Source: Candidatus Tayloriibacteriota bacterium (GTDB taxonomy: Bacteria > Patescibacteriota > Minisyncoccia > Phycocordibacterales > JACOZD01). From it: 43,037 nucleotides of DNA. Below, in pieces: positions 1-34,725 of the stretch. Position 1 is the first letter of the stretch. Each line of letters begins with the position of its first letter. The stretch spans positions 1-43,037 of the forward strand of contig JACOZD010000002.1 in assembly GCA_016181525.1 (NCBI GenBank), given 5' to 3'. A program made the position numbers and the translations under genes. A model generated the notes under the pieces. That model was not told where the DNA came from and made no database searches. It was given only the letters and a program-made list of their open reading frames with translations.

Positions 1-37
1 ACTTGTAAAATGCATAACAAAATAATATCCTAAAGGT

Positions 38-208
38 ATGGCTAAAGCACCAAAAACACCAGTTTTTTTTATAGCAACTAAGACAAGGAAAGAACCTGTT
101 GTTGTAAACTTCTACACCAAAAATGGAAAGTTGGTTTCATTTAATGCTGTTCAGAAAGTGAAAACTAAGACAGGCGTGAATTTTTACGCAAAGCGACCAA
201 AGCGCTGA
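38..208 (+). CDS. small basic hypothetical protein (56 aa, not in ORF track)
   Basis: ATG at 38 after AAAGG, open to TGA at 206-208, which overlaps the next ATG (TGATG coupling); MAKAPKTPVFFIATKTRKEP... Confidence 0.6.
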   Translation: MAKAPKTPVFFIATKTRKEPVVVNFYTKNGKLVSFNAVQKVKTKTGVNFYAKRPKR

Positions 209-573
209 TGTCGAAGAAACAATCTCTCACTTCCATAGATTTCGACTTTGGAGTTGGTAAAATCATTCCTGCAACACAAGAAGCTTTTAGTGATGAAGGG
301 TTTGACGTGCAAGTAAGGAAAACAGAAAAAGAATCCTTGTCCATTTTTAAGAGTACACTTGGAACTGAGATTGATTCCAAGCTTACGAGTAATGAACTGT
401 TTCCCACTGATGGGGAAGTATTTTTATTTATTGTTCAAAGAGTTCCGCAAGATTTTGCTTACTGTGCTGTAAAGCGATTGAGCTCTTCTCAAGATGTTGA
501 TGCACTTAAGATTTCAGGTTTAGAGCGCTCTGTTACTATGTTTCAAGAGCTCAAGAATAAAAAAATTCTCTAA
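208..573 (+). CDS. hypothetical protein
   Basis: 121 aa ORF translationally coupled to the upstream ORF; no motif recognised. Confidence 0.6.
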   Translation: MSKKQSLTSIDFDFGVGKIIPATQEAFSDEGFDVQVRKTEKESLSIFKSTLGTEIDSKLTSNELFPTDGEVFLFIVQRVPQDFAYCAVKRLSSSQDVDALKISGLERSVTMFQELKNKKIL

Positions 574-705
574 ATCAAGGGAGCTTTCGCCGCTCTTTCT
601 TGCGGCGAAGTGCGCGCGCATGGGAGGTGGGTGAGAAGCGAATACTTGGAGCTTCGCAAGGCCGGAGCGCGGCGGCGCGAGGAGGGGTCGCGGGCTACAA
701 AAAAG

Positions 706-734
706 TTGACATAAAACAGTGACCATGCTAATGT
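706..734 (+). promoter_or_regulatory. sigma70-type promoter upstream of the Cas7-like gene
   Basis: TTGACA (706-711), 17 bp spacer, TGc-TAATGT (729-734). Confidence 0.55.
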
Positions 735-789
735 ATTTTTGTTGATAGGGTGTACCTATCAATAAGAGTCTTAATCAAGGCTTTTTTCA

Positions 790-817
790 TTGACAACAGA
801 ATATTGACAACAGAATA
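790..817 (+). repeat. tandem 14 bp direct repeat TTGACAACAGAATA x2
   Basis: Exact copies at 790-803 and 804-817 in the leader of the Cas7-like gene. Confidence 0.8.
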
Positions 818-863
818 CAGGTAATAACGCCTTGAGCATGGCCTGAAAAAGCTCTGTTCTAAA

Positions 864-1571
864 GTGTGGAAAGGTAAGTTAGCTATGAAGATACGTGCGC
901 TACTCGTGGGGGTTGCCCCGCTTCTCATCAATCGAATGACACCGGACACGCTCGAAGGTCTCCGGACCAAGGTCCATAAGCCAAAAGCCAAGGATCTCTC
1001 GCCGAAGCAGGAAGCGATTGGCAAGATCTATCGGAAGGACGGCGACAAAGGGCCAATGGGCATTCCGACCTTGAATCTGCTTGCCGCTATCAAAGCGGCA
1101 GGACGGTTCCATAAGTTCGATGGCAAGAAAGCGGTCTCGACCGCCGAGGGCACCTTGCTCTATTCGTTCCTCTCGATTGAGGATGAGTTCCTGCCGTTCG
1201 CGAATAATAATACCAAGGGAGAAATCCAGTGGGAAGCCGACATGCGTCGGGGAACCTGCATGGACATCGCCGTTTGCATTGTTCGGCCGAAGTTCAAAAA
1301 TTGGTCGCTCGACGTCACCTTCCAGGTTGACGGGAAGCAGGTCAAAGAAGGTCTCATCCGTCAACTCGTGGATACCGCTGGCTCCAAGGCCGGCCTCTGC
1401 GACTTCCGTCCGAACAAGGGCGGACCCTTCGGCCGTTTTGCGGTCGAGAAGTGGGAAGTGACGATGGAAGAATCGGACAAGCAGGGCGGGTATTCGGAAG
1501 AAGTCGAAGAGTCAGAGCCATCTGGTAATGGTCCGAATCGTCTCGAGAAACTTGAGACGGCGCGAGCGTAA
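864..1571 (+). CDS. Cas7/RAMP-like RNA-binding protein (likely start ATG 885)
   Basis: RAMP-like motif order: N-terminal strand LxGxxPLL, IPxxNLxAAIxxA, RPxFxxW strand, helix ending in AG, and C-terminal Gly-rich loop GLCDFRPNKGGPFGRFAV; acidic tail; directly followed by a structured array. Confidence 0.75.
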   Translation: MWKGKLAMKIRALLVGVAPLLINRMTPDTLEGLRTKVHKPKAKDLSPKQEAIGKIYRKDGDKGPMGIPTLNLLAAIKAAGRFHKFDGKKAVSTAEGTLLYSFLSIEDEFLPFANNNTKGEIQWEADMRRGTCMDIAVCIVRPKFKNWSLDVTFQVDGKQVKEGLIRQLVDTAGSKAGLCDFRPNKGGPFGRFAVEKWEVTMEESDKQGGYSEEVEESEPSGNGPNRLEKLETARA

Positions 1572-1572
1572 G

Positions 1573-2273
1573 TATTTACTTGCGGTGTCTGCGTGTCTTG
1601 TGCTAGTCTACGGTAAGATGCGGTTCTCTACTGATGCCGCGGAGTGAAAAATCTCCGCGGCAAGATTTCCGTTTTGTTCTTTGTCGCCAGGTCCTGTTCG
1701 CTCGAGTTAAGTTGGTTTCTGCTCGTTACGGCACGGTAACCTTCAGTACGGCCCCCGCCCCTTTTTTGAAAAAGGGGCGGGGGAGAATTTCAAAATCTGT
1801 TTTTTTATTCCGGTTGAGTAACCCGTTCTCCGCTGGACCGGAGCACGGTGAAGTTCATTCCACTAATGGGCGAGAGAGTTTAACTCTCTCGCCAGAATTT
1901 CCGGTTCGGTTTGTTCGGCCAAACTATCCTGCGGTTCTCTGGCCTGCACTAAACAAATCCGAACTACGCGGCTGGCATTCTCTTGAATGCCAGCCATTTG
2001 ATTTTTTGTCATAAAAGTTTTTTAAGTTATCTCTCGCGGTAAGGTGCGTTTTTGTTCTCTTTCCCAGAGTTTGGTTTTCCATCCTACAGTCTTCTTTTTC
2101 TACAGGGCACAAGGTGAGAAACTTTGTGCGATTTACTTTTTATGTTTTTAATGTAAGGTAAGACTGGATCAGGCGTACCAACGTGTGCTTGAGTGTGCTC
2201 CACTCCTCTGCGGCCGACTCAGGTTGGGTATTGTAGGGATTCTCTATGGGGCGAGGAATGAAAATTCCTCGCC
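1573..2273 (+). ncRNA. array 1: six putative guide-like RNA units with 5-nt periodicity, each ending in a hairpin
   Basis: Units at about 1573-1662, 1663-1783, 1784-1893, 1894-1995, 1996-2129, 2130-2273. Hairpins at 1635-1662, 1752-1783, 1869-1893, 1970-1995, 2107-2129, 2250-2273. A pyrimidine falls at every 5th base of the unit body (e.g. 1672,1677...1752 all Y). RNA status is inferred. Confidence 0.8.
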
Positions 2274-2283
2274 ATTTTTGTAT

Positions 2284-2312
2284 TTGACAGTTTGTGATAC
2301 TCATGCTAGTAT
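2284..2312 (+). promoter_or_regulatory. sigma70-type promoter for the small ORF-DinG-array 2 unit
   Basis: TTGACA (2284-2289), 17 bp spacer, TGc-TAGTAT (2307-2312). Confidence 0.65.
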
Positions 2313-2423
2313 CTCAACCAGAAATAGCTCCATAGCTATAGCTATAATCTAGGTGAGTAATCTAGGTTTTTTGACAACACTGAATAATCAAAACACAGAC
2401 AACAAAGAGAAAGGAAATTCCTT

Positions 2424-2747
2424 ATGGGTAAGCATTATGTTGTAACTAGCTCGAGAATACGCCGAAAATCAAAAAAAGAGAAACGTCCTCCGAGCGTAAA
2501 CAAATACGCCCGTTTCGTACCTTCTCGGTCTTCTTTCTACCACTGGTTTGATAAAACTTTTCGCGACCTGCCAATTATTGGTGATCGCGGAGAAGTTCTC
2601 AAGGCGGGCTATCGTGTAACCTTTCATGGACGATTATATGCCCTTATGAAGGATACATCAATTCCGCAGACAGCACCCTCCATTCCGGGCACAGCAAACA
2701 AGTATCAAGGCGTCGGGCGATTCAAGTTGGTTGCCCGCCTTGATTGA
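2424..2747 (+). CDS. small basic hypothetical protein upstream of DinG
   Basis: 107 aa, AAAGGA RBS, K/R-rich N-terminus, abuts the helicase gene. Confidence 0.65.
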   Translation: MGKHYVVTSSRIRRKSKKEKRPPSVNKYARFVPSRSSFYHWFDKTFRDLPIIGDRGEVLKAGYRVTFHGRLYALMKDTSIPQTAPSIPGTANKYQGVGRFKLVARLD

Positions 2748-4585
2748 AAAAGAAAGGAAACATGCAACATCTGGAACATCTAAAATTATCTCTTTTAGAA
2801 GAGACGTTCCCCACAAGCGCTCTTCGTCGAGCGCCGTGGGCAAGTCAGCGGGAAATGTTTCGCATCATTTCCGAGAATGGCTCGGTCACGATCGAATCTC
2901 CGACAGGAAGCGGAAAAACCGCAGTCGAGTATACGGTCCTCAAAGCCGCAGACTTGAAACGGAAACAACCGCTTTTTCTCATCACTCCGAATAAAACATT
3001 GGTGGAGCAAATCCGCCAAGAGTTTCCGGATCTCAAAATCGCTCTTGGGCGAAACGAGCATCCATGTTTCTACTATCAGGACAAGTTGCCAGCTGATAAA
3101 CAGCCAATGGCAGACGAAATTCCATGCTCGCTTCTTAAAGACTGCCCTCATCGGGTGGACCAAGAGACAGGCAAAACTTTCGTAGAGGGAGCGATCCCAT
3201 GTCCGTATTTGAAGCAAAAGTTTGAGGCGAAGCAGGGCGGCATCGTTCTCTCCACCATAGCTTTCTATCTCTTCACTCAGCTTTTTAGCAAGGAGTGGGA
3301 GCAACCAGAAGTACTTGTCATTGACGAAGCACATAGGATGGCTGAAGTGGTGAGAAATGCACTCTCGTACGAAATCACTGATTGGCATTTACGAAAGTCG
3401 GTGGAACTTCTGCGAGAAATTGGTGCGGAGGAAGCAGAGTTGCTTCACGACTTCTACAAGAAGTTGGTTCATATAATCAAGTCAAAACCTGCGCATGAAC
3501 GAACCATGCTGAATGCCCGAGAAATTAGAGCGCTCATGGAAAAGCTTGAGGTCATAGATCAATCAGGACTCTTGCGCAAGCTTGAAAAGGCGGTGCGGGA
3601 GAAAGTGATTGATGTTGTCGAGAAACGGGAGACTCTGAAGAAGCTTGAAGTAGTGGTGAAGGATCTTCGCCGCTATCTACGCTCATTCGAGTATTCGCTA
3701 CCTGACGAAAATCGGCACGCGCTCAACTACACCTATGCCTTCTACAAAGACAAAGAGGAGAAAGGAGAGAAAGAGCATGTGCAGTATCGACTGGTGGTTA
3801 AATGCTACTATGTCGCACCCATCATCAAAAAAATTATGGGCAAGACAACGGTGGCTCTCTCGGCGACAATCGGAGATGATGAAGTGTTTGGCCATGAGAC
3901 GGGAATACGGAATCCATGTTTCAGTTTGGAATCCAATTTTCCGTCCGATAATGCTCGACTCTTTATGCCGACCGATACTCTCAATCTCGCGAAAAACGAG
4001 CGTGGTAATCGCGATTTACCAAAGAGTATCAGGATGGTGGCTCGGGCTTGCAAACGGTTGAGAGATAAAGGACACCGAAGTCTTTTCGTCACTATCTCTA
4101 ACCTTGAACGTGATAAGTTCATGATGATGGCAGAGGAGGAAGGTCTAAAGGCCATAAGTTACGGCAACGGCGTAACTGCAAAGGAAGCGGCTATCCGTTT
4201 CCGTGACGGCGAGGGTGATGTTCTCTGCGGCACGGCTTCAAACTATGCCGAAGGGGTGGATTTGCCAAAACAGATCGCACCAGTCATATTCTTTCTCCGA
4301 CCCGGGTATCCCAATCCTAAGGATCCGGGAACACAGTTTGAAGAAGAACGCTTCGGCGGCAGTCGGTGGGCGCTGTGGAATTGGCGGGTGATGATCCAGG
4401 CACTTCAAGTCCGCGGTCGGAACATTCGTTCTACCAAGGATCTGGGGGTGACGATATTCATATCACAGCAATTCCGGCGGTTCGTTCACGCATCACTTCC
4501 CAAATGGCTCGAGAAAGCATATGTCAATGACCGTACGTTTGACGAGTGTATTTCCCAAACGGAGGAGTTGTTAGGGGAAAAATAG
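2744..4585 (+). CDS. DinG/XPD-family SF2 helicase (likely start ATG 2762)
   Basis: Walker A ESPTGSGKT, VIDEAH, LSAT, AEGVDLP, QVRGRNIR; four Cys (HPC, IPC, DCPH, PCPY) consistent with an Fe-S site; AAAGGA RBS before ATG 2762. Confidence 0.9.
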   Translation: MKKKGNMQHLEHLKLSLLEETFPTSALRRAPWASQREMFRIISENGSVTIESPTGSGKTAVEYTVLKAADLKRKQPLFLITPNKTLVEQIRQEFPDLKIALGRNEHPCFYYQDKLPADKQPMADEIPCSLLKDCPHRVDQETGKTFVEGAIPCPYLKQKFEAKQGGIVLSTIAFYLFTQLFSKEWEQPEVLVIDEAHRMAEVVRNALSYEITDWHLRKSVELLREIGAEEAELLHDFYKKLVHIIKSKPAHERTMLNAREIRALMEKLEVIDQSGLLRKLEKAVREKVIDVVEKRETLKKLEVVVKDLRRYLRSFEYSLPDENRHALNYTYAFYKDKEEKGEKEHVQYRLVVKCYYVAPIIKKIMGKTTVALSATIGDDEVFGHETGIRNPCFSLESNFPSDNARLFMPTDTLNLAKNERGNRDLPKSIRMVARACKRLRDKGHRSLFVTISNLERDKFMMMAEEEGLKAISYGNGVTAKEAAIRFRDGEGDVLCGTASNYAEGVDLPKQIAPVIFFLRPGYPNPKDPGTQFEEERFGGSRWALWNWRVMIQALQVRGRNIRSTKDLGVTIFISQQFRRFVHASLPKWLEKAYVNDRTFDECISQTEELLGEK

Positions 4586-5261
4586 TTTCAGCTGCCCTTC
4601 GGCATTCTTGCGTGAAGTCGCGTAGTCCGAGCTCGCGTGCGCTTGTCTGCCGTTCAGTGCAGTTCGCTAAAGTACGGGCTGAGCATTTTCGAAAGAAAAT
4701 GCTCAGCTAAAATTTCCGGTGCAGTATAAGTCGCGCATCCTGCGCTGCTGTCCGGTGAAGTCCGCTAGCCATATGCTAGTGTGTCGTTCGGTGCCGAGTA
4801 ACATTTCGATGTCACTCGGCTAGAATTTCTGAAGTACACCAGTCTATGTTGCGGCGTTTTGTAGTTTGCTTGGCTAGACTGTCGTGCACTGCAGTAGCAG
4901 TACGGGCATAGCACCACGCTGTGGTGCTAGGCAAAAATTTCCCGTGTGGTAACGTAACCTTCCGTATGCTGTGTTAAGGTGCTACATGGTACACTCCGGA
5001 GCCAAGCTTTTGATTTAAAGGCTTGGCTATAATTTACTTCTGCTCCGTGTGCCTTGCTAGTCTCGGCCCCGGTCAGGTGGAGGTGTTGTCCAGTGCGATG
5101 CAGTTCGCCAGACTACGGCCTCGCCCTTTCGCGGAGAAAGGGCGAGGGAAATTTCTCTTGTTCTTTCAGTTCGGTTCGTTGCTCTGTGGTATAGTGGCCT
5201 GTGCTATGTTATACCAAGCTTGTCTACGGACGCGCGTATCAGAAATGGTACGCGCTTTTTT
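4586..5261 (+). ncRNA. array 2: six putative guide-like RNA units with 5-nt periodicity, each ending in a hairpin
   Basis: Units at 4586-4707, 4708-4820, 4821-4932, 4933-5028, 5029-5147, 5148-5255. Hairpins at 4678-4707 (GAAA loop), 4793-4820 (TTCG loop), 4906-4932, 5000-5028, 5119-5147, 5232-5255 followed by T6. Y at 4593,4598...4673 (17/17). RNA status is inferred. Confidence 0.8.
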
Positions 5262-5402
5262 CTTTGTCTGAAAAGGAGCCCCGCCACATCCTTTCTCCTC
5301 CCTTGTGGCGTGGCATATGTGCGCGGTGGGTAGGAAGGCAAGCACATACAAGAATGAGTCCTCGGACATTAAACAGGGCTTTTTTGTTTATTTTGAGTGA
5401 GC

Positions 5403-5431
5403 TTGACTTTTGTTGAAACTTACAATATATT
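5403..5431 (+). promoter_or_regulatory. sigma70-type promoter
   Basis: TTGACT, 17 bp spacer, TATATT. Confidence 0.5.
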
Positions 5432-5506
5432 TATTGAGACACTTGAGTAAGGTGCTCAAGGGTGCTCAAGCAAGAAATTGTACCTTGAAAGGAGAGATGA
5501 TCCTCG

Positions 5507-6292
5507 ATGAGATATTTTTCTGCTCGTCGGCGAATACAAGAGGAGCTTCAATACCTCCTTAAGTTTCTGACCGAGTACTTCGGAACAGAAATTCAGACAG
5601 TCGTTGTCTACGGAAGTTTCCTTAGGTGGTCATTCCGTAAATACAACGATGTGGATGTAGCAATCATTTTGCGTGATTCTCCAGAGTGGCGATGGAGCAG
5701 TTCAGAGTCCTTCTGGGATGCGCGAGATGATTCGCCATATCGTCAGAATTTCTTCCAAAAGCTCGAGCAGTTTCTCAAGGAGTTGGGTGCTTCTCGTCCT
5801 TACGACATCAAGGTCTTTACTACGCGTGACCTTGTATTGTTGGCAGAGTTCCAGGAACGCGTAGTCCACACCAGGGGGAACCTGGCACCGAGTATCAGAG
5901 CTGGGAAAGTCATTTTCCAGCGAAAGGAGAACGACATGGCGGAAATGAAGAAGAAACACAGGAGCTTCGTGGAGTTCCTGGACCGAGAGCTCCCGGCTCT
6001 CGGCATGACACACTGGTACAGAAGCAACGACGACTACGGTATCGGGATCGACTACCACGACATCGGCAAAGTCGTGACGGTGGAGCATCGCTTCCTGTTC
6101 ATCACTTGGACATCGAAGCGCACCATCACCATCGCGAGTGTGATTGCCGAGCCGGACACGCCGATTCATGGCGGAGCAGAGGATACTCTCCGGCTTCGCG
6201 TGAAGGTTCGTGAGGCAATACCGACGCTTCAGAGATTGGCCGAGAAGTTCGAAGATGCGACCTTCGGACTCAAAGCCGAGCTCATGTACTGA
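5507..6292 (+). CDS. minimal nucleotidyltransferase (Pol beta superfamily) domain plus unknown C-terminal region
   Basis: VVYGSF...NDVDVAIIL motif, later YDIKV and IRAGKVIF; in-frame internal RBS plus ATG at 5936. Confidence 0.75.
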   Translation: MRYFSARRRIQEELQYLLKFLTEYFGTEIQTVVVYGSFLRWSFRKYNDVDVAIILRDSPEWRWSSSESFWDARDDSPYRQNFFQKLEQFLKELGASRPYDIKVFTTRDLVLLAEFQERVVHTRGNLAPSIRAGKVIFQRKENDMAEMKKKHRSFVEFLDRELPALGMTHWYRSNDDYGIGIDYHDIGKVVTVEHRFLFITWTSKRTITIASVIAEPDTPIHGGAEDTLRLRVKVREAIPTLQRLAEKFEDATFGLKAELMY

Positions 6293-6953: not shown

Positions 6954-7118
6954 GTGAAAGAAATTCTAAAAAATAACAAAAAATTCTATCAGTGCCAGGA
7001 GTGCGGCTTGGTTTACGCCGACAAAGAAACTGCCGAGAAATGCCAAGCGTGGTGCATCGAACACAGAAGCTGCAACTTAGAGATTATCAAACACGCTGAA
7101 AAAAACTTTAACTTCTGA
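6954..7118 (+). CDS. small Cys-rich putative metal-binding protein (54 aa, not in ORF track)
   Basis: GTG start; YQCQECGLVY...AEKCQAWCIEHRSCNLEII. Confidence 0.7.
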   Translation: MKEILKNNKKFYQCQECGLVYADKETAEKCQAWCIEHRSCNLEIIKHAEKNFNF

Positions 7119-7158
7119 TTAAAGGTAGAAATATTTTAGGAGTGGTAGGCGTAATATT

Positions 7159-9462
7159 ATGCTCCATGAAATAAAGAGGAACAGTAAGAGATGCTATTTG
7201 GGCAATATCACTGTGCTCGCGGTCCTTTTATCTATTTTATTTTTAGTCGAGGCGTTGTTTCCTTTGTCATACGCTGGTTCAGAGGAAGGATTTAGAAGAA
7301 AGATTTCAGACCATAAAATCCATAATTACTTTGCCGAGGTCTGGAAGATAAGGAAAGAGATTGCTGAGGGGGGAGATGAAGAAGATAAATACAGGATATC
7401 GAAACGTCGAAGTTTGATGAAGGAACTTATGAAGCACGACCCCTCTCTTTTTTTCCTCCTCGCCGAAAGCGGAAGAAACAAAGCGAATTTTGAACGGAAA
7501 GAGCTTATAAAAGGGCTCGTCGAAATTGTTCATCATGATGAGATAAATTTCTCCAAACTTCGCGATGAATATTTTTTGCACACTAAAAGCAAGAGATTCA
7601 AACTTTATCCAGTATCTGATTTCAGACCAGAGGCGGGTTCGGAGATTTCTTTCCTCGGCTATACCGTCGGAGATAATATAGTCTTCAACCCGGCAGAGGG
7701 TATATCAGTGTTATCGGGCGAGAGGAACGAAGCTTTGGGGGAACAGAGAACACTGGTCATTCTTTTGAATCCCGAGACCGAGAGCGCCGAGCCGTTTACC
7801 GAAGAAGAAGCTCACAATATTGTTTTCGGAAGCACTGTCAGTAAATTCATGACTGAACAATCATATGGGGCTGTCTCTTTTACTGGTGACGTTTTGCCTT
7901 GGACGACCTTTCCTGCCAGAGGGAGTTGTACACTTCTCACTTCAGCCGAGCTCGAGGGAGTGATAGATTCATATAATATTGATTTGAGCGGTTATGACAG
8001 AATAATAAATTTGGTGCACATACCCACTCTGAATTTCTTAGGAGGATGCTCCACGATCGGCAAGAGCGAGTATGTTATAGGAGGAACAAGTTATCGTCTT
8101 TCACAAGCCTCGGTATCAACTTATGGATTTGATATTCCGGCCCGGTTTCTTGAATTTTTCCGCTGGACTCTCTTAGACGGCGCTTTAGCCCATGAACTGG
8201 GACACTCTCTCGGTCTCCACCACGCAAACGGCTGGGATTGCGGCGGCAGCTCGCTTGGCGCTGTCTGCGCGCGTGAGGAGTACGGCAATCTCTTTGACGT
8301 AATGGGGCAAGCTCTTTACTCCAGCCACACTAACGCTTTTTACAAACAACTACTGGGTTGGCTGCCTCCTTCGCGCATTCTGTCGGTTACCGAGTCAGGC
8401 CGCTTTGCCTTGCAGCCATTCGAGCGCTCCGACGGCGTTGCGGCCGCACGGATTAAGCTGGCGGGCAGTGATGCTTACCCTTACTACCTCGAGTTCAGAC
8501 AAAACCAGGGTTTTGACGTCGGTCTTGGGCGAAGTCATCTTGTCTCCAATCTACAAGGTCTAATGGTAAACCGAATTTTGGATATCTCCCGATTGGGCTG
8601 GAGTGTGCCGGCTCTCATCGATGCGCGCCCTACTTCTCTCACTTGGGCTTCTGATTTATTCGAAGTCACTCTTAATGCCGGTCAAAGTCTTATCGATGAA
8701 CGCTTGGGTATCGAGATCGAGACCGTGAGTTCCACTCTAGAGATTCTGATATTTGAAACCAAAATTTCTCCGCCGCCCTGTGAGCGCACCCCCCCGACCC
8801 TTTTCATACTGGAAGGCAGCGCTACTCCTGTAATTGCCTCTGGTGGCGCGGGTTACGTCACTCTTATTTTAAAGAATGATGACTATTTTGGATGCGGCCC
8901 TGCAGCAATAACAGTCACGCCTGCCCCTGGTTCTGCCGGGTGGGTATGGGAGGAGACTCGAAATCAAACTGTCAACTTGCTTCCGGAGGGGGCGCAAACG
9001 GCCTACCTAGGTTTTGGTTTAGATATTCCTCCTGATACTCCGCCCGGGTCTTACAATCTCGCTTTTGAAGCGCGGAACGAGGTCAGTGGATTGCAGTCAG
9101 AACTCATTCTACCCATAGAGATAGTCTCACCCCCGCATATTTCCGAAGTCCTGCCTCATATTGGCCCGGCTGGAACTGGGGTGATTATCAAGGGTAGCGG
9201 CTTTGATTCGCAGTCCACATTCGTGGATATGTGGAAAGTCAACTTTGGTTATCTTAGCGACTACTTGGAAGGAATCGATATCTCGGCTACTGAAGAGGGT
9301 ATTGAGTTTACTGTGCCCGAAGTGATTAATGTCTGCGCCGAAATCTGTGAAATCATCTCTCTCCCTCTGGGCAGGTACGAAATAATTATTACAGCCAACG
9401 GTGCCAGTGCCAAGGGGGATTTTATTGTCGTGCCGCCTGCGCCAGTAAAGTCCAAAAAGTGA
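7159..9462 (+). CDS. secreted/surface zinc metallopeptidase (M11-like) with C-terminal Ig-like domains
   Basis: N-terminal TM segment, HELGHSLGLHH zinc motif, EYGNLFDVMG Met-turn, IPT/TIG-like C-terminus. Confidence 0.8.
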   Translation: MLHEIKRNSKRCYLGNITVLAVLLSILFLVEALFPLSYAGSEEGFRRKISDHKIHNYFAEVWKIRKEIAEGGDEEDKYRISKRRSLMKELMKHDPSLFFLLAESGRNKANFERKELIKGLVEIVHHDEINFSKLRDEYFLHTKSKRFKLYPVSDFRPEAGSEISFLGYTVGDNIVFNPAEGISVLSGERNEALGEQRTLVILLNPETESAEPFTEEEAHNIVFGSTVSKFMTEQSYGAVSFTGDVLPWTTFPARGSCTLLTSAELEGVIDSYNIDLSGYDRIINLVHIPTLNFLGGCSTIGKSEYVIGGTSYRLSQASVSTYGFDIPARFLEFFRWTLLDGALAHELGHSLGLHHANGWDCGGSSLGAVCAREEYGNLFDVMGQALYSSHTNAFYKQLLGWLPPSRILSVTESGRFALQPFERSDGVAAARIKLAGSDAYPYYLEFRQNQGFDVGLGRSHLVSNLQGLMVNRILDISRLGWSVPALIDARPTSLTWASDLFEVTLNAGQSLIDERLGIEIETVSSTLEILIFETKISPPPCERTPPTLFILEGSATPVIASGGAGYVTLILKNDDYFGCGPAAITVTPAPGSAGWVWEETRNQTVNLLPEGAQTAYLGFGLDIPPDTPPGSYNLAFEARNEVSGLQSELILPIEIVSPPHISEVLPHIGPAGTGVIIKGSGFDSQSTFVDMWKVNFGYLSDYLEGIDISATEEGIEFTVPEVINVCAEICEIISLPLGRYEIIITANGASAKGDFIVVPPAPVKSKK

Positions 9463-9469
9463 ACCAAGA

Positions 9470-10318
9470 ATGTTAAGAATCGGAGCGCATCAGTCGATTG
9501 CCGGAGGGTACGCTAAAGCAGTGGAGAGAGTTCACGCTATCGGGGGCAACTGTCTCCAGATTTTCTCCGCCTCGCCCCGAAGTTGGAGCCGGCCCGCTCC
9601 GGACGCCGAAGACAAGAAAAATTTTTTGAAGTTGAGAGAGGAATTTGACGTTCATCCTGTCTACTTCCACGCTTCTTATCTCATCAACCTGGCCGATGGC
9701 GGAGAAGTCGGCCGGAGGTCAGTCGGGGCGCTCATCGCCGAACTTAAAGCGGCCGGGGACTGCGATATTGTCGGCAGCATCATCCATCTCGGCTCGTTTA
9801 AAAACGCTGACAGCGCCGCCGTGGCAGAAAACCGGTACTCGATTTTAATCGCCAATATAAAAGAGATTTTAGATAACACCCCTAAGCGCACCTTTTTTAT
9901 CATCGAGAATTCGGCCACCCGTAAAATCGGCCGGCGGCTGGAGGAGATAGCTAATATCATAAATTGGCTTGGCAGCGATAGAGTAAGGGTTTGTCTCGAC
10001 ACCTGCCACCTCCACGCCGCCGGCTACGACCTCTCCAGCCGGAGGAGAATGGAAGATTTTCTTAAGGACTTTGACTCTCAAATCGGTTTGTCACAACTCC
10101 AGGTTTGGCACGCCAACGACAGCCGCGACGCCTTCGGGTCGCTGCGCGACCGGCACGAGAACATTGGTGAAGGCAAGGTGGCCAAGGCCATTTTCTCTCT
10201 TCTTCTCCAGGAAGCCGAGACGAAGTATCTGCCTTTTATTATCGAGACGCCGGGTTTTGACGGCCAAGGGCCGGATGCCGAGAATATCGCTAGACTGCGC
10301 TCGCTGGAAGTCGGTTAG
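9470..10318 (+). CDS. nfo: endonuclease IV
   Basis: GAHQSIAGG, HASYLINLA, CLDTCHLHAAGYD, DRHENIGEG, IIETP. Confidence 0.95.
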   Translation: MLRIGAHQSIAGGYAKAVERVHAIGGNCLQIFSASPRSWSRPAPDAEDKKNFLKLREEFDVHPVYFHASYLINLADGGEVGRRSVGALIAELKAAGDCDIVGSIIHLGSFKNADSAAVAENRYSILIANIKEILDNTPKRTFFIIENSATRKIGRRLEEIANIINWLGSDRVRVCLDTCHLHAAGYDLSSRRRMEDFLKDFDSQIGLSQLQVWHANDSRDAFGSLRDRHENIGEGKVAKAIFSLLLQEAETKYLPFIIETPGFDGQGPDAENIARLRSLEVG

Positions 10319-10376
10319 AATGAGCTGTGTATAACCTTATGCTCCGAAACGTCTCTTGTTGATATAATTTTGCTGT

Positions 10377-12104
10377 ATGCTCACTCCCAATGAACAAGAG
10401 TATCTTGTAAAAATCCAGTCCTATAATCCCGGCATCGGAGACGCCGATATCCGGCTGGTACTTCGCTCAAGCGGCTGGAACGCCGAGAAGATAGAAGAAG
10501 GGGTAAAGTATCTTCGGGGCGGCCCTCCTCCGCCTTGGCCCAAGGAGACCTCTCTGCCGTCACCGGCCGTGAGCCCGCCGCCCCGGCAAGGGGGCGATCT
10601 CATCCCGCAGCCGGTTAAACCCGGACTGACTCCGCTCATTCAGTCAAAGGCGCCTCTGCCGCCGAAACCGGTCGCACTCTCTCCAGCTCTGCGCGGAACG
10701 CCCGGTGTTCGAGGCGTAGCTTTGGCCATGGCGGCATTGCTTGTTTTAATTTTAGCCGCCAGTGGTTTGTCATTTTTCCTCGGCCTGCCGCCGCTTGGAA
10801 CTCTCGGCAAGCCCGCTTCGCCGAGTAATTTTCTGACCACTATCTCAAAGGCCTTAACCGGGTCCGGGAGCTTGTCCCGAACCATAGTTCTGGAGTTTAA
10901 AGAAGAGCCGAGGGAGAACGGGGTCAAATCTTCCGGTTCGAGCGCCGTCAATGACTTTTTAAAGAGCATCTCTCCGGGTTCTTTCGCTCGGTCCCGGCTT
11001 GAGGCCAGCTACGCCGGCCGGGACTTCAAGGTCGAACTTGACGCCAGCGCCCGGGTTGGCCTCGCTGTCTTTGAGTCGGTCGGGGCCGTCGTTATCAAAG
11101 CGGGCAAAATTTATCTTAGAGTTGATAAACTTTATCCGAGTGCCTTAGCCACCTCGACCATCCTCGGTCAGTGGGTCTCACTCATGCCCGAGGAGTTGCC
11201 CCTCCTGGCCCGGCCCGAGGCCACCACCACTGCCGCCGGAGCGGGCCCGCTCCGGCTCGACGAGCGGGTCTACCTTGAATACCTTGAAACCGCTCTGCCC
11301 CTGGCCGACCGCCACCGGGTGATTAAAATCTCGCGGGTTAGGCGCGATGACATCTCCGGCCTAAAGGCCTATCGTTACGACATCAGGGTCAGTCTGCCGA
11401 ATTTAATCTCGTTTTATAAAGAGTATACCGAGGTAATGAGAGAGAGGTATGGAGCATCCGTCATTTCTCCCAATACCGGTTTGATTGAGTTTCTTGAGAA
11501 TGAAGATTCAGCCGAGGTTTTCGACTTTTGGAAAAGGAACAGCGCCGCCTCGGTGTGGCTCGACGAGAGAGGATTGCCCGTTTCCTCTCTTCTCACCTTG
11601 CGCTTGGTGCCTCCGGACGAGGTGACTACCCTCTCCGGCAGACAGTTTAAGTTGACCGTCTCGGCAGACGTCTCGCCCGGGTTGGCGGTTATCCAGGCCC
11701 CGGAGAGGTTTCTCTCGATCGAGGAGGCTCGGAGAATTCTCTTTGAACCGCCGCCCTCGCCTTCGTCCCTCAAGCCGCCGCCTCCGCCGGCCGCAAGAAA
11801 ACCGACTTCTGCCGTAACCGAAGTCAAGGCCGTTTTTGAAAAAATTCGCGCGGCTAACAGGACTCAAAATGCGGACGAGATGGATAAACATCTCACCGCC
11901 CGCTCGGTAGCCCTGCTCGCGGCCGGAGGCGAGAGAATCTGGTTTAAGGACTTTGTTTGGGTCTCCGGTCGGGTTTCAGGCTCGAGAGTGGTGACGGAGA
12001 TACGCATCATTGACCTGGCGGCCGGGGCCAGCACCTTGAGTGTCCCGTTTTTGCGTCAAGGCGGAGTCTGGAAAATGGGTTTAGCCGAAAGTCTGGAGCT
12101 TTAA
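10377..12104 (+). CDS. membrane-anchored hypothetical protein with Pro-rich linkers
   Basis: 575 aa, single TM segment, N-terminal LRSSGW motif. Confidence 0.8.
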   Translation: MLTPNEQEYLVKIQSYNPGIGDADIRLVLRSSGWNAEKIEEGVKYLRGGPPPPWPKETSLPSPAVSPPPRQGGDLIPQPVKPGLTPLIQSKAPLPPKPVALSPALRGTPGVRGVALAMAALLVLILAASGLSFFLGLPPLGTLGKPASPSNFLTTISKALTGSGSLSRTIVLEFKEEPRENGVKSSGSSAVNDFLKSISPGSFARSRLEASYAGRDFKVELDASARVGLAVFESVGAVVIKAGKIYLRVDKLYPSALATSTILGQWVSLMPEELPLLARPEATTTAAGAGPLRLDERVYLEYLETALPLADRHRVIKISRVRRDDISGLKAYRYDIRVSLPNLISFYKEYTEVMRERYGASVISPNTGLIEFLENEDSAEVFDFWKRNSAASVWLDERGLPVSSLLTLRLVPPDEVTTLSGRQFKLTVSADVSPGLAVIQAPERFLSIEEARRILFEPPPSPSSLKPPPPPAARKPTSAVTEVKAVFEKIRAANRTQNADEMDKHLTARSVALLAAGGERIWFKDFVWVSGRVSGSRVVTEIRIIDLAAGASTLSVPFLRQGGVWKMGLAESLEL

Positions 12105-32364: not shown

Positions 32365-34725
32365 ATGGTCAAGACAAAAAATCTTGTAAAGTCTGCAGTC
32401 CCCGCTTCGGCTGTTAAGCGAGGTGAAAAGAAGAAAGAAAACACCTTCGTAAAGGTGGTGCGCAAGCGCGACGGCACCGTCGTGCCTTTCGATATCAACA
32501 AAATCAAGAACGCTCTCTACAAGGCCATGATTCAGACCGGCGAGGGGAGCGAAGAGGAGGCGGCGGTGGTAGCCAACAAGGTTTACGCCGACCTTATTCG
32601 TATCACCAAAAAGTACAAAAACTTCATCCCCGAGGTGGAGGGTATCCAAGACACGGTTGAGGCCGAGCTTATCCTCTCCGAGTACGTCAGGACGGCCAAG
32701 GCCTACATCCTCTACCGCGAGAAGCGGGCCAAACTGCGCGAGAAGGGTTTCCATGTGCCCGCCCACGTTAAAAAGCTGGCCGCGGAGAGCAAGCGCTACT
32801 TCCGCAACCCTTTGGGCGAGTTCGTTTACTACCGCACCTACTCGCGTTGGATTGACGAGGAGGGTCGGCGGGAAACCTGGATCGAGACGGTGGACCGTTT
32901 TATGGCTTTTATGAGAGAGAATCTTGGCGGCAAGCTCAAAGAAAGCGAGTACAAAGAGCTCCGGGAAACCGTTCTCTCCCACGAGGCCATGCCCTCGATG
33001 CGGTTGCTGCAGTTTGCCGGCAGGGCCGCCCGGGCTTCGAATGTCTGCGCCTACAACTGCTCCTTTGTCGCCCCGGAGTCCTTTCAAGACCTGGCCGAGA
33101 TTATGTATATCTCCATGTGCGGCACCGGCGCCGGTTGGGAGGTCTCGGCCATAAACGTGGAAAAGTTCCCGCAGATTCTGCCCCAGACCGGCGAGAAACT
33201 CGCAACTCACGTTATTCCCGACAGCAAGGAGGGCTGGGCCGACTCATTGGTGGTTGGGATGAAGGCCTGGGCGGTCGGCAAAGACATTGATTTTGATTTC
33301 TCTCTGCTTCGTCCGGCCGGGGCTAGGCTTAAGACCATGGGCGGCAAGAGCTCCGGGCCGGAGCCTCTGCGCCGGCTCCTCGCCTTTGCCCGCGAGCGGA
33401 TGCTCGCCCGTCAAGGCCGGCGCCTGCGGCCCATCGACATTCACGACATCATCTGCATGATAGGGGACTGCGTGGTGGCCGGAGGGGTGCGCCGGAGCGC
33501 CATGATCTCCCTCTCCGACCTCGACGACGGCGAAATTCGGGATGCCAAGAAGGGCGCTTTTTACCTCACCGACCCGCACCGCTCCTTGGCCAACAACTCC
33601 GCCGTTTACCTGCGCAAGCCCACCAACGAGGAGTTTTTGGAGGAGTGGATGGCTCTCATCAAAAGCCGTTCGGGGGAGCGGGGAATATTTAATCGCGGCT
33701 CGCTCGCCAAGCAGCTGCCGGGGAGACGCCTCGAAGTTTTGAAGAAACACAAGGGCTACCTCGACCCTTCGGGGGAGAGTGTCATCGGCCACCTCGGCAC
33801 CAATCCTTGCGGAGAGATAATTCTTCAAAGCAAGCAGTTCTGCAACCTCTCCGAGGTGGTGGCCAGGCGGGAGGACGATGAGAGGTCGCTTCTGCGCAAA
33901 GTTAGGGTTGCCACCATCCTCGGCACCTATCAATCGACCTTGACCGACTTTCCCTACCTCTCCAAGGAGTGGAAAGAGCGCTGTGAGGAGGAGCGCCTCC
34001 TCGGTGTCTCCATTACCGGCCAGTGGGACTCGCCGACAGTTCGCCGTCCCGAGGTTCTCTCCAAGCTCAAAGGAGAGGCCATCAAGGTCAATCGGGAGTA
34101 CGCCAAGCGCTTTGGCGTGAGTCTCTCCACCTGCATCACCTGCGTTAAGCCCTCGGGCACTCTCTCCCAGATGGTTGACTGTTCCTCGGGCATGCACCCG
34201 CGCCACGCGCCCTACTACATCCGCCGCATTCGCATCGCCGCCACTGACGCCCTCTTTAAGATGCTCAAGGACCAGGGCGTGCCTTACTACCCGGAGACAG
34301 GGCAGACCAAGGAGAACGCCACCACCTTCGTCTTGGAGTTCCCTGTCCGCTCGCCCGACAACTCTATCTTCAAGGACGATATTACCGCCATCGAGCAGTT
34401 GGAGTACTGGAAAACGGTCAAGTTGAGCTACACCGAGCATAATCCTTCGGTGACGGTCTCGGTCGGCGACGGCGAATGGGTTGAGGTGGCCAACTGGCTT
34501 TACAAAAACTGGGATATTTTGGGGGGACTGTCTTTCCTCCCCAGAGAGAAGCACGTTTACCAGTTGGCGCCTTATGAGGACATTGATGAGAAAAAGTATC
34601 ACGAGCTGGCCAGCCGGCTTAAAAATATCGACTACTCCAAAATCATTACCTACGAAAAGAGCGACGAGACCGAAGTTAAAAAAGAGCTGGCCTGCGTGGC
34701 CGGGGTGTGCGAAGTGGTTCAGTAG
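32365..34725 (+). CDS. nrdJ: class II (B12-dependent) ribonucleotide reductase with ATP cone
   Basis: VRKRDG ATP cone, YNCSF, GGVRRSA, GTNPCGEI, VKPSGT, C-terminal CxxGxC. Confidence 0.93.
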   Translation: MVKTKNLVKSAVPASAVKRGEKKKENTFVKVVRKRDGTVVPFDINKIKNALYKAMIQTGEGSEEEAAVVANKVYADLIRITKKYKNFIPEVEGIQDTVEAELILSEYVRTAKAYILYREKRAKLREKGFHVPAHVKKLAAESKRYFRNPLGEFVYYRTYSRWIDEEGRRETWIETVDRFMAFMRENLGGKLKESEYKELRETVLSHEAMPSMRLLQFAGRAARASNVCAYNCSFVAPESFQDLAEIMYISMCGTGAGWEVSAINVEKFPQILPQTGEKLATHVIPDSKEGWADSLVVGMKAWAVGKDIDFDFSLLRPAGARLKTMGGKSSGPEPLRRLLAFARERMLARQGRRLRPIDIHDIICMIGDCVVAGGVRRSAMISLSDLDDGEIRDAKKGAFYLTDPHRSLANNSAVYLRKPTNEEFLEEWMALIKSRSGERGIFNRGSLAKQLPGRRLEVLKKHKGYLDPSGESVIGHLGTNPCGEIILQSKQFCNLSEVVARREDDERSLLRKVRVATILGTYQSTLTDFPYLSKEWKERCEEERLLGVSITGQWDSPTVRRPEVLSKLKGEAIKVNREYAKRFGVSLSTCITCVKPSGTLSQMVDCSSGMHPRHAPYYIRRIRIAATDALFKMLKDQGVPYYPETGQTKENATTFVLEFPVRSPDNSIFKDDITAIEQLEYWKTVKLSYTEHNPSVTVSVGDGEWVEVANWLYKNWDILGGLSFLPREKHVYQLAPYEDIDEKKYHELASRLKNIDYSKIITYEKSDETEVKKELACVAGVCEVVQ

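Follow-up and report, generated by a model that had tools for sequence, protein, structure and literature searches.

Positions 726–5262 of a 43,037-nt stretch of contig JACOZD010000002.1 from Candidatus Tayloriibacteriota bacterium (GenBank assembly GCA_016181525.1), the whole of which we refer to as the window, hold a locus of ~4.5 kb on the + strand. This locus is very probably a VIPR (Viral Interference Programmable Repeat) system carried on the chromosome, and it belongs with a clade of such systems that have a helicase gene and occur in Patescibacteria and in DPANN archaea. The region contains three open reading frames (ORFs) of 228 aa, 107 aa, and 607 aa, all on the + strand, and two non-coding arrays of six hairpin-ended units each (1572–2283 and 4586–5262). 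In VIPR systems, the protein Vipr, a minimal RAMP with an RRM core, a glycine-rich loop, and a thumb, polymerizes on a vrRNA composed of 9–16 YNNGG repeats and a structured tail, with one protomer per repeat that sequesters GGY and presents NN; the filament reads double-stranded DNA by reading two bases and skipping one, and the systems studied are transcription repressors (10.64898/2026.04.26.720920; 10.64898/2026.04.26.720927). According to the text of the first of these preprints, seven types and six accessory genes are defined, 25.5% of VIPR loci lie in cellular chromosomes, types III–V encode nucleases or helicases with nucleases confined to types III and V, and relaxed repeats of the forms NNNGG, YNNNG, and NNNNG are noted, the YNNNG repeats being reported there without another reading rule (10.64898/2026.04.26.720920). 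A later preprint describes 99 period-5 clusters, 21 of which have non-canonical cores (10.64898/2026.10.21.760802). The locus described here is therefore not a new kind of system but a VIPR member with a weaker repeat core and hairpin tails of free sequence.

The first gene, at 885–1571, encodes the 228-aa protein, whose ATG start at 885 was assigned from homologs (a GTG at 864 is also in frame). This protein had no significant match in Pfam, NCBIfam, or PADLOC, and among PHROGs it matched the unnamed family phrog_4652 (E value 7e-18); a large protein database contained 35 relatives beside the window protein, all of them hypothetical, and the few with a source label came from Patescibacteria and one Pacearchaeota archaeon. 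A close homolog is OHA16911.1 (UniRef100_A0A1G2MZM0). A profile of 36 sequences matched PDB chain 36pp_D, "SUSP1 Vipr protein," with an E value of 1.4e-10 over profile positions 33–190 of 200 and most of the chain, and the single sequence found the same chain at 4.4e-4. The AlphaFold2 (AF2) model, with a predicted local distance difference test (pLDDT) score of 88.5, has a β-α-β core with a β-hairpin insert at 76–116. Foldseek returned 57 PDB chains at an E value of 0.001 or less, and those listed are of Cas7 type (type VII Cas7, Csm3, Csf2, and Cmr); the best solved folds are Cas7/Csm3 chains (probability 1.00, E values 4e-6 to 1e-4, template modeling [TM] scores 0.40–0.54, identity 11–18%), Csf2 is at rank 41, and the best match in a library of viral models reached a TM score of 0.63–0.69. 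An invariant glycine-rich loop, GLCDFRPNKGGPFGRF in the window, precedes the last strand across the homolog alignment. Given the profile match to SUSP1 Vipr together with the Cas7-type fold matches, the protein is a Vipr that is Cas7-like in fold. The original prediction, made from the DNA alone, had proposed a RAMP or Cas7-like protein, with which the structure search agrees, and had noted a likeness to VIPR RNAs, which proved correct in light of the SUSP1 Vipr match and of the vrRNA-like anatomy of the units.

Both arrays are periodic, as a test that is free of phase and motif demonstrates: base identity within the arrays is 0.373, 0.361, and 0.347 at lags of 5, 10, and 15 nt and ~0.25 at other lags, and the value at lag 5 (z = 7.5) was reached by none of 1,000 shuffles. 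No period-5 peaks were present in the helicase gene or in a 6-kb control stretch. The arrays contain 35 and 36 positions at which at least 8 of 10 pentamers match [GC][CT] at period 5, compared with means of 0.28 and 1.3 in dinucleotide shuffles, none of 1,000 of which reached the observed count. At the same threshold the rest of the 43 kb contains five + strand and 17 − strand clusters, and two further − strand clusters lie inside the arrays; at 9 of 10, the only cluster outside the arrays is a + strand match at 33544–33625 in the ribonucleotide reductase gene, which is probably due to chance, and there are none on the − strand. Among 161 curated repeats, 157 have a pyrimidine at position 3 (128 of them T) and 139 have G or C at position 2 (75 G and 64 C), while positions 1, 4, and 5 are nearly free (0.05–0.09 bits, with 0.09 bits at position 1); position 1 is A, C, G, or T in 27%, 19%, 26%, and 27%, respectively, of 1,733 repeats from relatives. 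The canonical GGY core is present in only 29 of the 161, and the window repeats thus represent a relaxed form of the VIPR consensus. The N(G/C)Y triplet followed by NN, and its greater degeneracy relative to GGY, had been described accurately from the sequence.

All 12 units share one build, namely 10–18 pentamers of the form N-[G/C]-[T/C]-N-N followed by a predicted hairpin tail of 9–14 bp, after which come (A)AUUU(C/A) in nine units, mostly AAUUUC, and a U-rich run in the remaining ones; the motifs UACGG and AAUUUC recur around the tails. In 11 of the 12 units the hairpin was unmatched by any of 200 dinucleotide shuffles (z −4.1 to −6.5). Because the stems differ in sequence between units, it is the structure that is conserved and not the sequence. 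As the original prediction had noted, each array starts just past a stop codon, with the first repeat 11 nt after that of vipr and 6 nt after that of the helicase gene. In the first array (+ strand), unit A1 (1572–1670) has 10 pentamers from 1582 and a hairpin at 1635–1662 (z −4.83) followed by AGAUUUCC; units A2 (1671–1791; 15 pentamers from 1675; hairpin 1752–1783, z −4.63) and A3 (1792–1901; 12 pentamers from 1807; hairpin 1869–1893, z −5.35) both continue with AGAAUUUC; A4 (1902–2000; 13 pentamers from 1903) has a terminator-like end formed by a hairpin at 1970–1995 (z −6.45) and a U-rich run; A5 (2001–2136) opens with an AT-rich lead and has 14 pentamers from 2033 and a hairpin at 2107–2129 (z −4.08) before GAUUUAC; and A6 (2137–2283; 18 pentamers from 2152) ends, again terminator-like, in a hairpin at 2250–2273 (z −5.12) and a U run. 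In the second array (+ strand), B1 (4586–4716) has 17 pentamers from 4591 and a hairpin at 4677–4708 (z −6.24) followed by UAAAAUUUC, and B2 (4717–4829) has 10 pentamers from 4729 and a hairpin at 4793–4820 (z −4.07) followed by UAGAAUUUC. B3 (4830–4941; 13 pentamers from 4833; hairpin 4906–4932, then AAAAAUUUC) has the weakest hairpin, with a z of −1.76 and 11 of 200 shuffles folding equally well, and its guide tract is ~80% like one in the Taylorbacteria locus L003 discussed below. B4 (4942–5036) has 11 pentamers from 4943 and a hairpin at 5000–5028 (z −4.60) followed by AUAAUUUA; in B5 (5037–5155) two tracts of 8 and 7 pentamers, from 5041 and 5082, are offset by a phase shift of 1 nt ahead of a hairpin at 5119–5147 (z −4.09) and GAAAUUUC; and B6 (5156–5262; 13 pentamers from 5163) closes with a terminator-like hairpin at 5232–5255 (z −4.13) and UUUUUU, a putative terminator of the second operon. 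An Rfam scan of 500–5600 at an E value of 1 or less gave no family except a chance miRNA match, and in view of this lack of a ribozyme match there is no hammerhead between the units; the junction of hairpin and AAUUUC may be where the units are processed. Stem sequences are specific to each unit in the window and in the related loci L003, L014, and L016; in L004 (2017–2634) and L005 (2202–6236) the tail hairpin is near-identical across units, in the manner of a CRISPR repeat.

The 607-aa protein encoded at 2762–4585 on the + strand (the assigned start is 2762, in a frame open from 2744) is a superfamily 2 (SF2) helicase of the XPD/Rad3/DinG family according to its matches in Pfam (Helicase_C_2, DEAD, and DEAD_2), PADLOC, and the PDB and its invariant residues. 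Its Walker A motif GSGKT, its DEAH box, and the cysteines C102, C122, C128, and C147 are invariant in 13 orthologs, and from these residues we read the four cysteines as an iron–sulfur (Fe-S) cluster site and the protein as a presumably active Fe-S helicase, with a 5′ to 3′ polarity that is assumed from the family. The closest solved chains are of archaeal XPD (E value 8.6e-10), and a profile of the 13 sequences matches XPD, CHL1, FANCJ, and Escherichia coli DinG. The only strong match in the defense library is the PADLOC model typeIV_DinG (full length, E value 3.5e-43), a name that reflects the annotation of the model's members and is not proof of CasDinG identity; the NCBIfam model cas_csf4 matches weakly (E value 1e-6, 27 bits vs. 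a cutoff of 400), and no CasDinG chain is among the best 60 of 81 PDB matches to the helicase profile. A complex prediction for Vipr and the helicase, run with no control predictions alongside, gave a score of 0.00 and no verdict for or against contact.

We then identified 17 loci with Vipr relatives from species-representative genomes; 15 of them are labeled as Patescibacteria or unclassified bacteria, one as Woesearchaeota, and one as Planctomycetaceae. In all 17 loci, across two domains of life, vipr is immediately next to an array in which 9 or more of 10 pentamers match, and the helicase gene is present in 12 of them. Among the five loci that lack it, four run out of contig ~0.5–2.6 kb from vipr, and the fifth, L015, has full flanks. 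Of 401 evenly sampled Patescibacteria genomes, searched with E value cutoffs of 1e-5 for Vipr and 1e-40 for the helicase, 10 genomes including that of the window (G000) carry both proteins and 391 carry neither; in all nine genomes other than the window's the two genes share one contig. Vipr is patchily distributed, occurring in 9 of the 400 other genomes and in none of the seven listed genomes of the same order. The helicase was never found without vipr in the genomes searched and is strictly tied to it. The period-5 flanks and dinG linkage that the original prediction expected of homologs are thus present, with arrays in 17 of 17 loci, the helicase in 12 of 17, and co-occurrence in 10 of 10 genomes.

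From 130 viral relatives found in IMG/VR we kept 80, most of which have vipr flanked by arrays on either side; none of the 80 has a helicase of the window type, and one has a weak helicase match (26% identity). A quick maximum-likelihood tree was built from 107 Viprs, leaving out L019–L030, which are duplicates of L001 and L111–L119, and matches shorter than 150 residues. It separates 27 cellular rows, 22 of which have the helicase in the available flank, from 79 viral rows plus L006 by a branch with a Shimodaira–Hasegawa-like approximate likelihood ratio test (SH-aLRT) value of 98; the inner branching order is uncertain owing to several long branches. Some loci combine two diverged vipr paralogs with a single helicase and have arrays after each paralog, as seen at L005 (1638–3357), at L112 in genome G239 (7013–11394), and in genome G102, where L117 holds one copy and L030 the second.

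The closest relative of the locus lies on a Taylorbacteria contig (L003), where protein identity is 83% for Vipr and 93% for the helicase and the DNA identity of the genes is 79–82%. DNA similarity is confined to window positions 726–5258 (L003 6866–12700), and within it alignment breaks down over the arrays, where only two guide tracts (~80% identity) and a few hairpins still match. Genes in the upstream flank of L003 match a different contig of the window's genome (C2 21657–26289) at 38–56% identity. That the proteins of the module are 83–93% identical and the flanking genes only 38–56% points to horizontal transfer, and the comparison agrees with a mobile module that passes from lineage to lineage and whose guides would change faster than its genes. 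Within the first array of L003, an extra coding segment (8862–9221) has 50% protein identity to a gene at C8 6343–6702 of the window's genome. The locus itself resides in the genome of a tiny groundwater bacterium, ~0.5 Mb (492 kb) in size with 52.8% GC, and GroEL, LepA, MurJ, RNase J, ribonucleotide reductase, and four tRNAs are encoded on the same contig, in agreement with the cellular context that had been suggested for it. A prophage origin of this copy was considered and rejected given these housekeeping genes and tRNAs and the lack of any phage family in the 19 neighboring ORFs scanned. Four groundwater DNA runs from a single study yielded contigs that cover the locus with near identity; strain differences are few, and the arrays show no variants.

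With respect to known systems, the locus has the components of VIPR: a Vipr homolog of ~20–25 kDa with a RAMP fold, arrays of putative ~100-nt RNAs made of pentamers (9–16 in VIPR) with a structured 3′ tail in intergenic DNA beside vipr, and a minimal gene set with an accessory gene whose product is predicted to act on DNA, with neither cas1/cas2 nor a CRISPR array. It differs from VIPR in its N-[G/C]-[T/C] core, where 64 of 161 repeats have C as the second base and 29 are GGY, in its tail, a hairpin of varying sequence with short fixed flanking motifs instead of an invariant pseudoknot tail, and in having two arrays with 12 units, an extra small ORF, and a Patescibacteria chromosome as host. 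Type IV-A CRISPR-Cas systems (Csf1–3, Cas6/Csf5, and CasDinG/Csf4) likewise combine a Cas7-like filament protein with a DinG-family helicase and no nuclease, and both the typeIV_DinG match and the presence of Csf2 among the fold matches recall them; however, of the CRISPR array, Csf1–3, a Cas6-type protein, and CasDinG that together mark type IV-A, only the helicase has a counterpart resembling it here. The locus, with its three ORFs only, has no Cas5, Cas6, or Cas8-like genes, no nuclease, and no identical-repeat array, its guide is a gapped pentamer code, and its helicase is weak on cas_csf4, with four invariant cysteines that resemble those of XPD and housekeeping DinG. A tandem-repeat scan detected no CRISPR-like repeats in the 43-kb window and Cas1 had no match in the genome (assembly 81.65% complete), in line with the earlier statement that the window has no cas1/2/5/6/8 and no identical repeats. 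The Cas7 proteins of types III and VII (Csm3 and type VII Cas7) are the closest solved folds to this Vipr, but identity is only 11–18%, Cas10, Cas14, and other partners are lacking here, and the footprint is 5 nt instead of 6 nt. The locus most likely belongs to the published helicase-bearing VIPR type. Since types III–V encode nucleases or helicases and types III and V are the only ones with nucleases in the text of the preprint, this type is by elimination probably type IV (10.64898/2026.04.26.720920). The novelty implied by the original prediction was too high, because the class, degenerate triplets, cellular chromosomes, and helicase accessory genes are all in that text already (10.64898/2026.04.26.720920).

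Several points weigh against the reading as a VIPR system of the helicase-bearing clade. The type was reached by elimination from the text of the preprint and not from its published tree or tables (10.64898/2026.04.26.720920). The sequence of the tail hairpin is different in each unit, whereas the tail of the SUSP1 clade is invariant and has a pseudoknot. Compared with GGY the core is far weaker, with no constraint at position 1, so the published reading rule may not transfer. A lookup of sequencing runs listed no RNA run as containing the locus. A consensus promoter search upstream of vipr (885) found none, and hence one element of the layout originally described was not recovered; the order of genes and arrays on the + strand, a second, promoter-like site (2284–2312), and the final terminator-like hairpin (5232–5255) were. 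Finally, no target was found under any tested rule in the window's own genome (492 kb) and ~1.7 Mb of loci. We searched the 12 window guides (13 tracts, as B5 is split) against the genome with the locus masked, reading NN with skips of 0–3 or NNN with skips of 0–2, and under all seven rules the best matches equaled those of permuted guides. Neither 153 guides from the window and the 17 loci, searched against the genome and those loci, nor 112 guides with 10 or more repeats, searched against viral and extra loci, gave an excess over permuted controls. As no rule gave targets, no reading rule is favored.

This last result bears on the idea that the locus is a VIPR system with a different code, in which, for example, positions 4 and 5 and the next position 1 are read or another skip applies. 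Position 1 is as uninformative as positions 4 and 5 in the window and is used freely in the repeats of relatives, and the clade stands apart from viral relatives on the Vipr tree, but the rules tried do not set any such code above the others and the YNNNG repeats in the text of the preprint come without another rule (10.64898/2026.04.26.720920). We consider a different code unlikely. Less probable still is that the system regulates host genes, or is a domesticated remnant, instead of acting on foreign DNA. Its chromosomal context among housekeeping genes and tRNAs and the tiny genome would suit such a role; set against this are self matches that do not rise above permuted controls under the seven rules, the patchy occurrence of Vipr, the turnover of guides, and the contrast in identity between module and flanks relative to L003, which points to transfer. 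The possibility that the periodic units are debris of repeats together with hairpins that act as terminators or attenuators, with the helicase an unrelated neighbor, can be given hardly any credence: a terminator-like hairpin does end every unit, with U runs in three, and no RNA run is listed for the locus, yet the period-5 composition is not reproduced by shuffles, arrays adjoin vipr in 17 of 17 loci in two domains, and Vipr and the helicase occur together in all 10 genomes that have either, with the other 391 lacking both.

If the locus is a VIPR system of the helicase-bearing clade, a mechanism can be proposed from the work on SUSP1 and P. fulva. The units would be cut from two or three transcripts, one with vipr and A1–A4, perhaps a separate one with A5–A6, and one with the small ORF, the helicase gene, and B1–B6. 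Each pentamer would be bound by one Vipr protomer that holds the S-Y core and exposes the next two bases, and by analogy these NN positions would read the target; the filament would read double-stranded DNA in a gapped fashion, two bases read and one skipped, and form an R-loop. By analogy with CasDinG of type IV-A and Cas3 of type I, the filament may recruit the helicase, which would load at the bound site, unwind 5′ to 3′, and so keep a foreign element from being transcribed or replicated; this would occur without cutting because the locus has no nuclease.

Candidate control elements and a third ORF complete the locus. A tandem 14-nt repeat in two copies (790–817, + strand; Tandem Repeats Finder, 789–817, period 14, 2.1 copies, 100% matches) lies ~70–95 nt upstream of vipr. 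Its 9-mer has a third copy at 2371–2379, upstream of the small ORF, and three of the seven copies of the 9-mer at 790 in the 492-kb genome (both strands) sit in the VIPR locus; the repeat is a possible shared regulatory site, either promoter or operator. Between A6 and the small ORF, a putative σ70-like promoter on the + strand (2284–2312; TTGACA, 17-nt spacer, TAGTAT, with TG) agrees with the consensus at 10 of 12 positions and, judged from that match, would serve the small ORF, the helicase gene, and the second array. The small ORF (2424–2747, + strand) encodes a basic protein of 107 aa whose conservation is limited to the closest relative, L003 (tblastn, 51% protein identity, E value 1e-28), the corresponding DNA of which does not align; it matched no family in Pfam, PHROGs, NCBIfam, or PADLOC, and an Atlas structure search gave only sub-threshold look-alikes.

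In the surroundings of the locus, window positions 1–599 have 36.7% GC compared with 52.8% for the genome and contain two ORFs (38–208 and 208–573) that match no family; this segment is possibly foreign DNA beside the VIPR module. The adjacent segment at 600–692 (68% GC) has 6–7 times deeper coverage in the two deepest of the four groundwater runs (12-fold in X3 and ~2-fold in X4), loose ends are abundant at 629–692, and partial copies occur near other contig ends of the genome (e.g., C2 628–665), and it is probably a short repeat common to several organisms that breaks assemblies. Directly downstream, 5507–6292 encodes a nucleotidyltransferase (Pfam Polbeta/NTP_transf_2) with weak matches to the MntA antitoxin and PADLOC PDC-S09, which may be a defense or toxin–antitoxin neighbor. 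Further downstream, a 767-aa ORF at 7159–9462 has a zinc-protease-like motif, HELGHSLGLHH, and no Pfam match.

There is a small but appreciable chance that the Patescibacteria/DPANN helicase clade is a VIPR type not yet detailed, with a pyrimidine-anchored N-S-Y code, hairpin tails of free sequence, a dedicated Fe-S DinG-like helicase of the kind associated with type IV CRISPR, and possibly a reading of three of every five bases; if so, the clade would form a present-day bridge from VIPR to the pairing of Cas7 with DinG on which type IV CRISPR is built. VIPR is a class of RNA-guided DNA recognition only months old, and bench work so far has dealt with virus-borne members of the repressor type only. 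The locus described here is a clean and compact cellular VIPR with twelve guides and a helicase tied to vipr, and it offers a test case for the effect that an enzyme-bearing VIPR has on its target, for the published code in the presence of a much weaker repeat core, and for VIPR as RNA-guided defense in half-megabase genomes.

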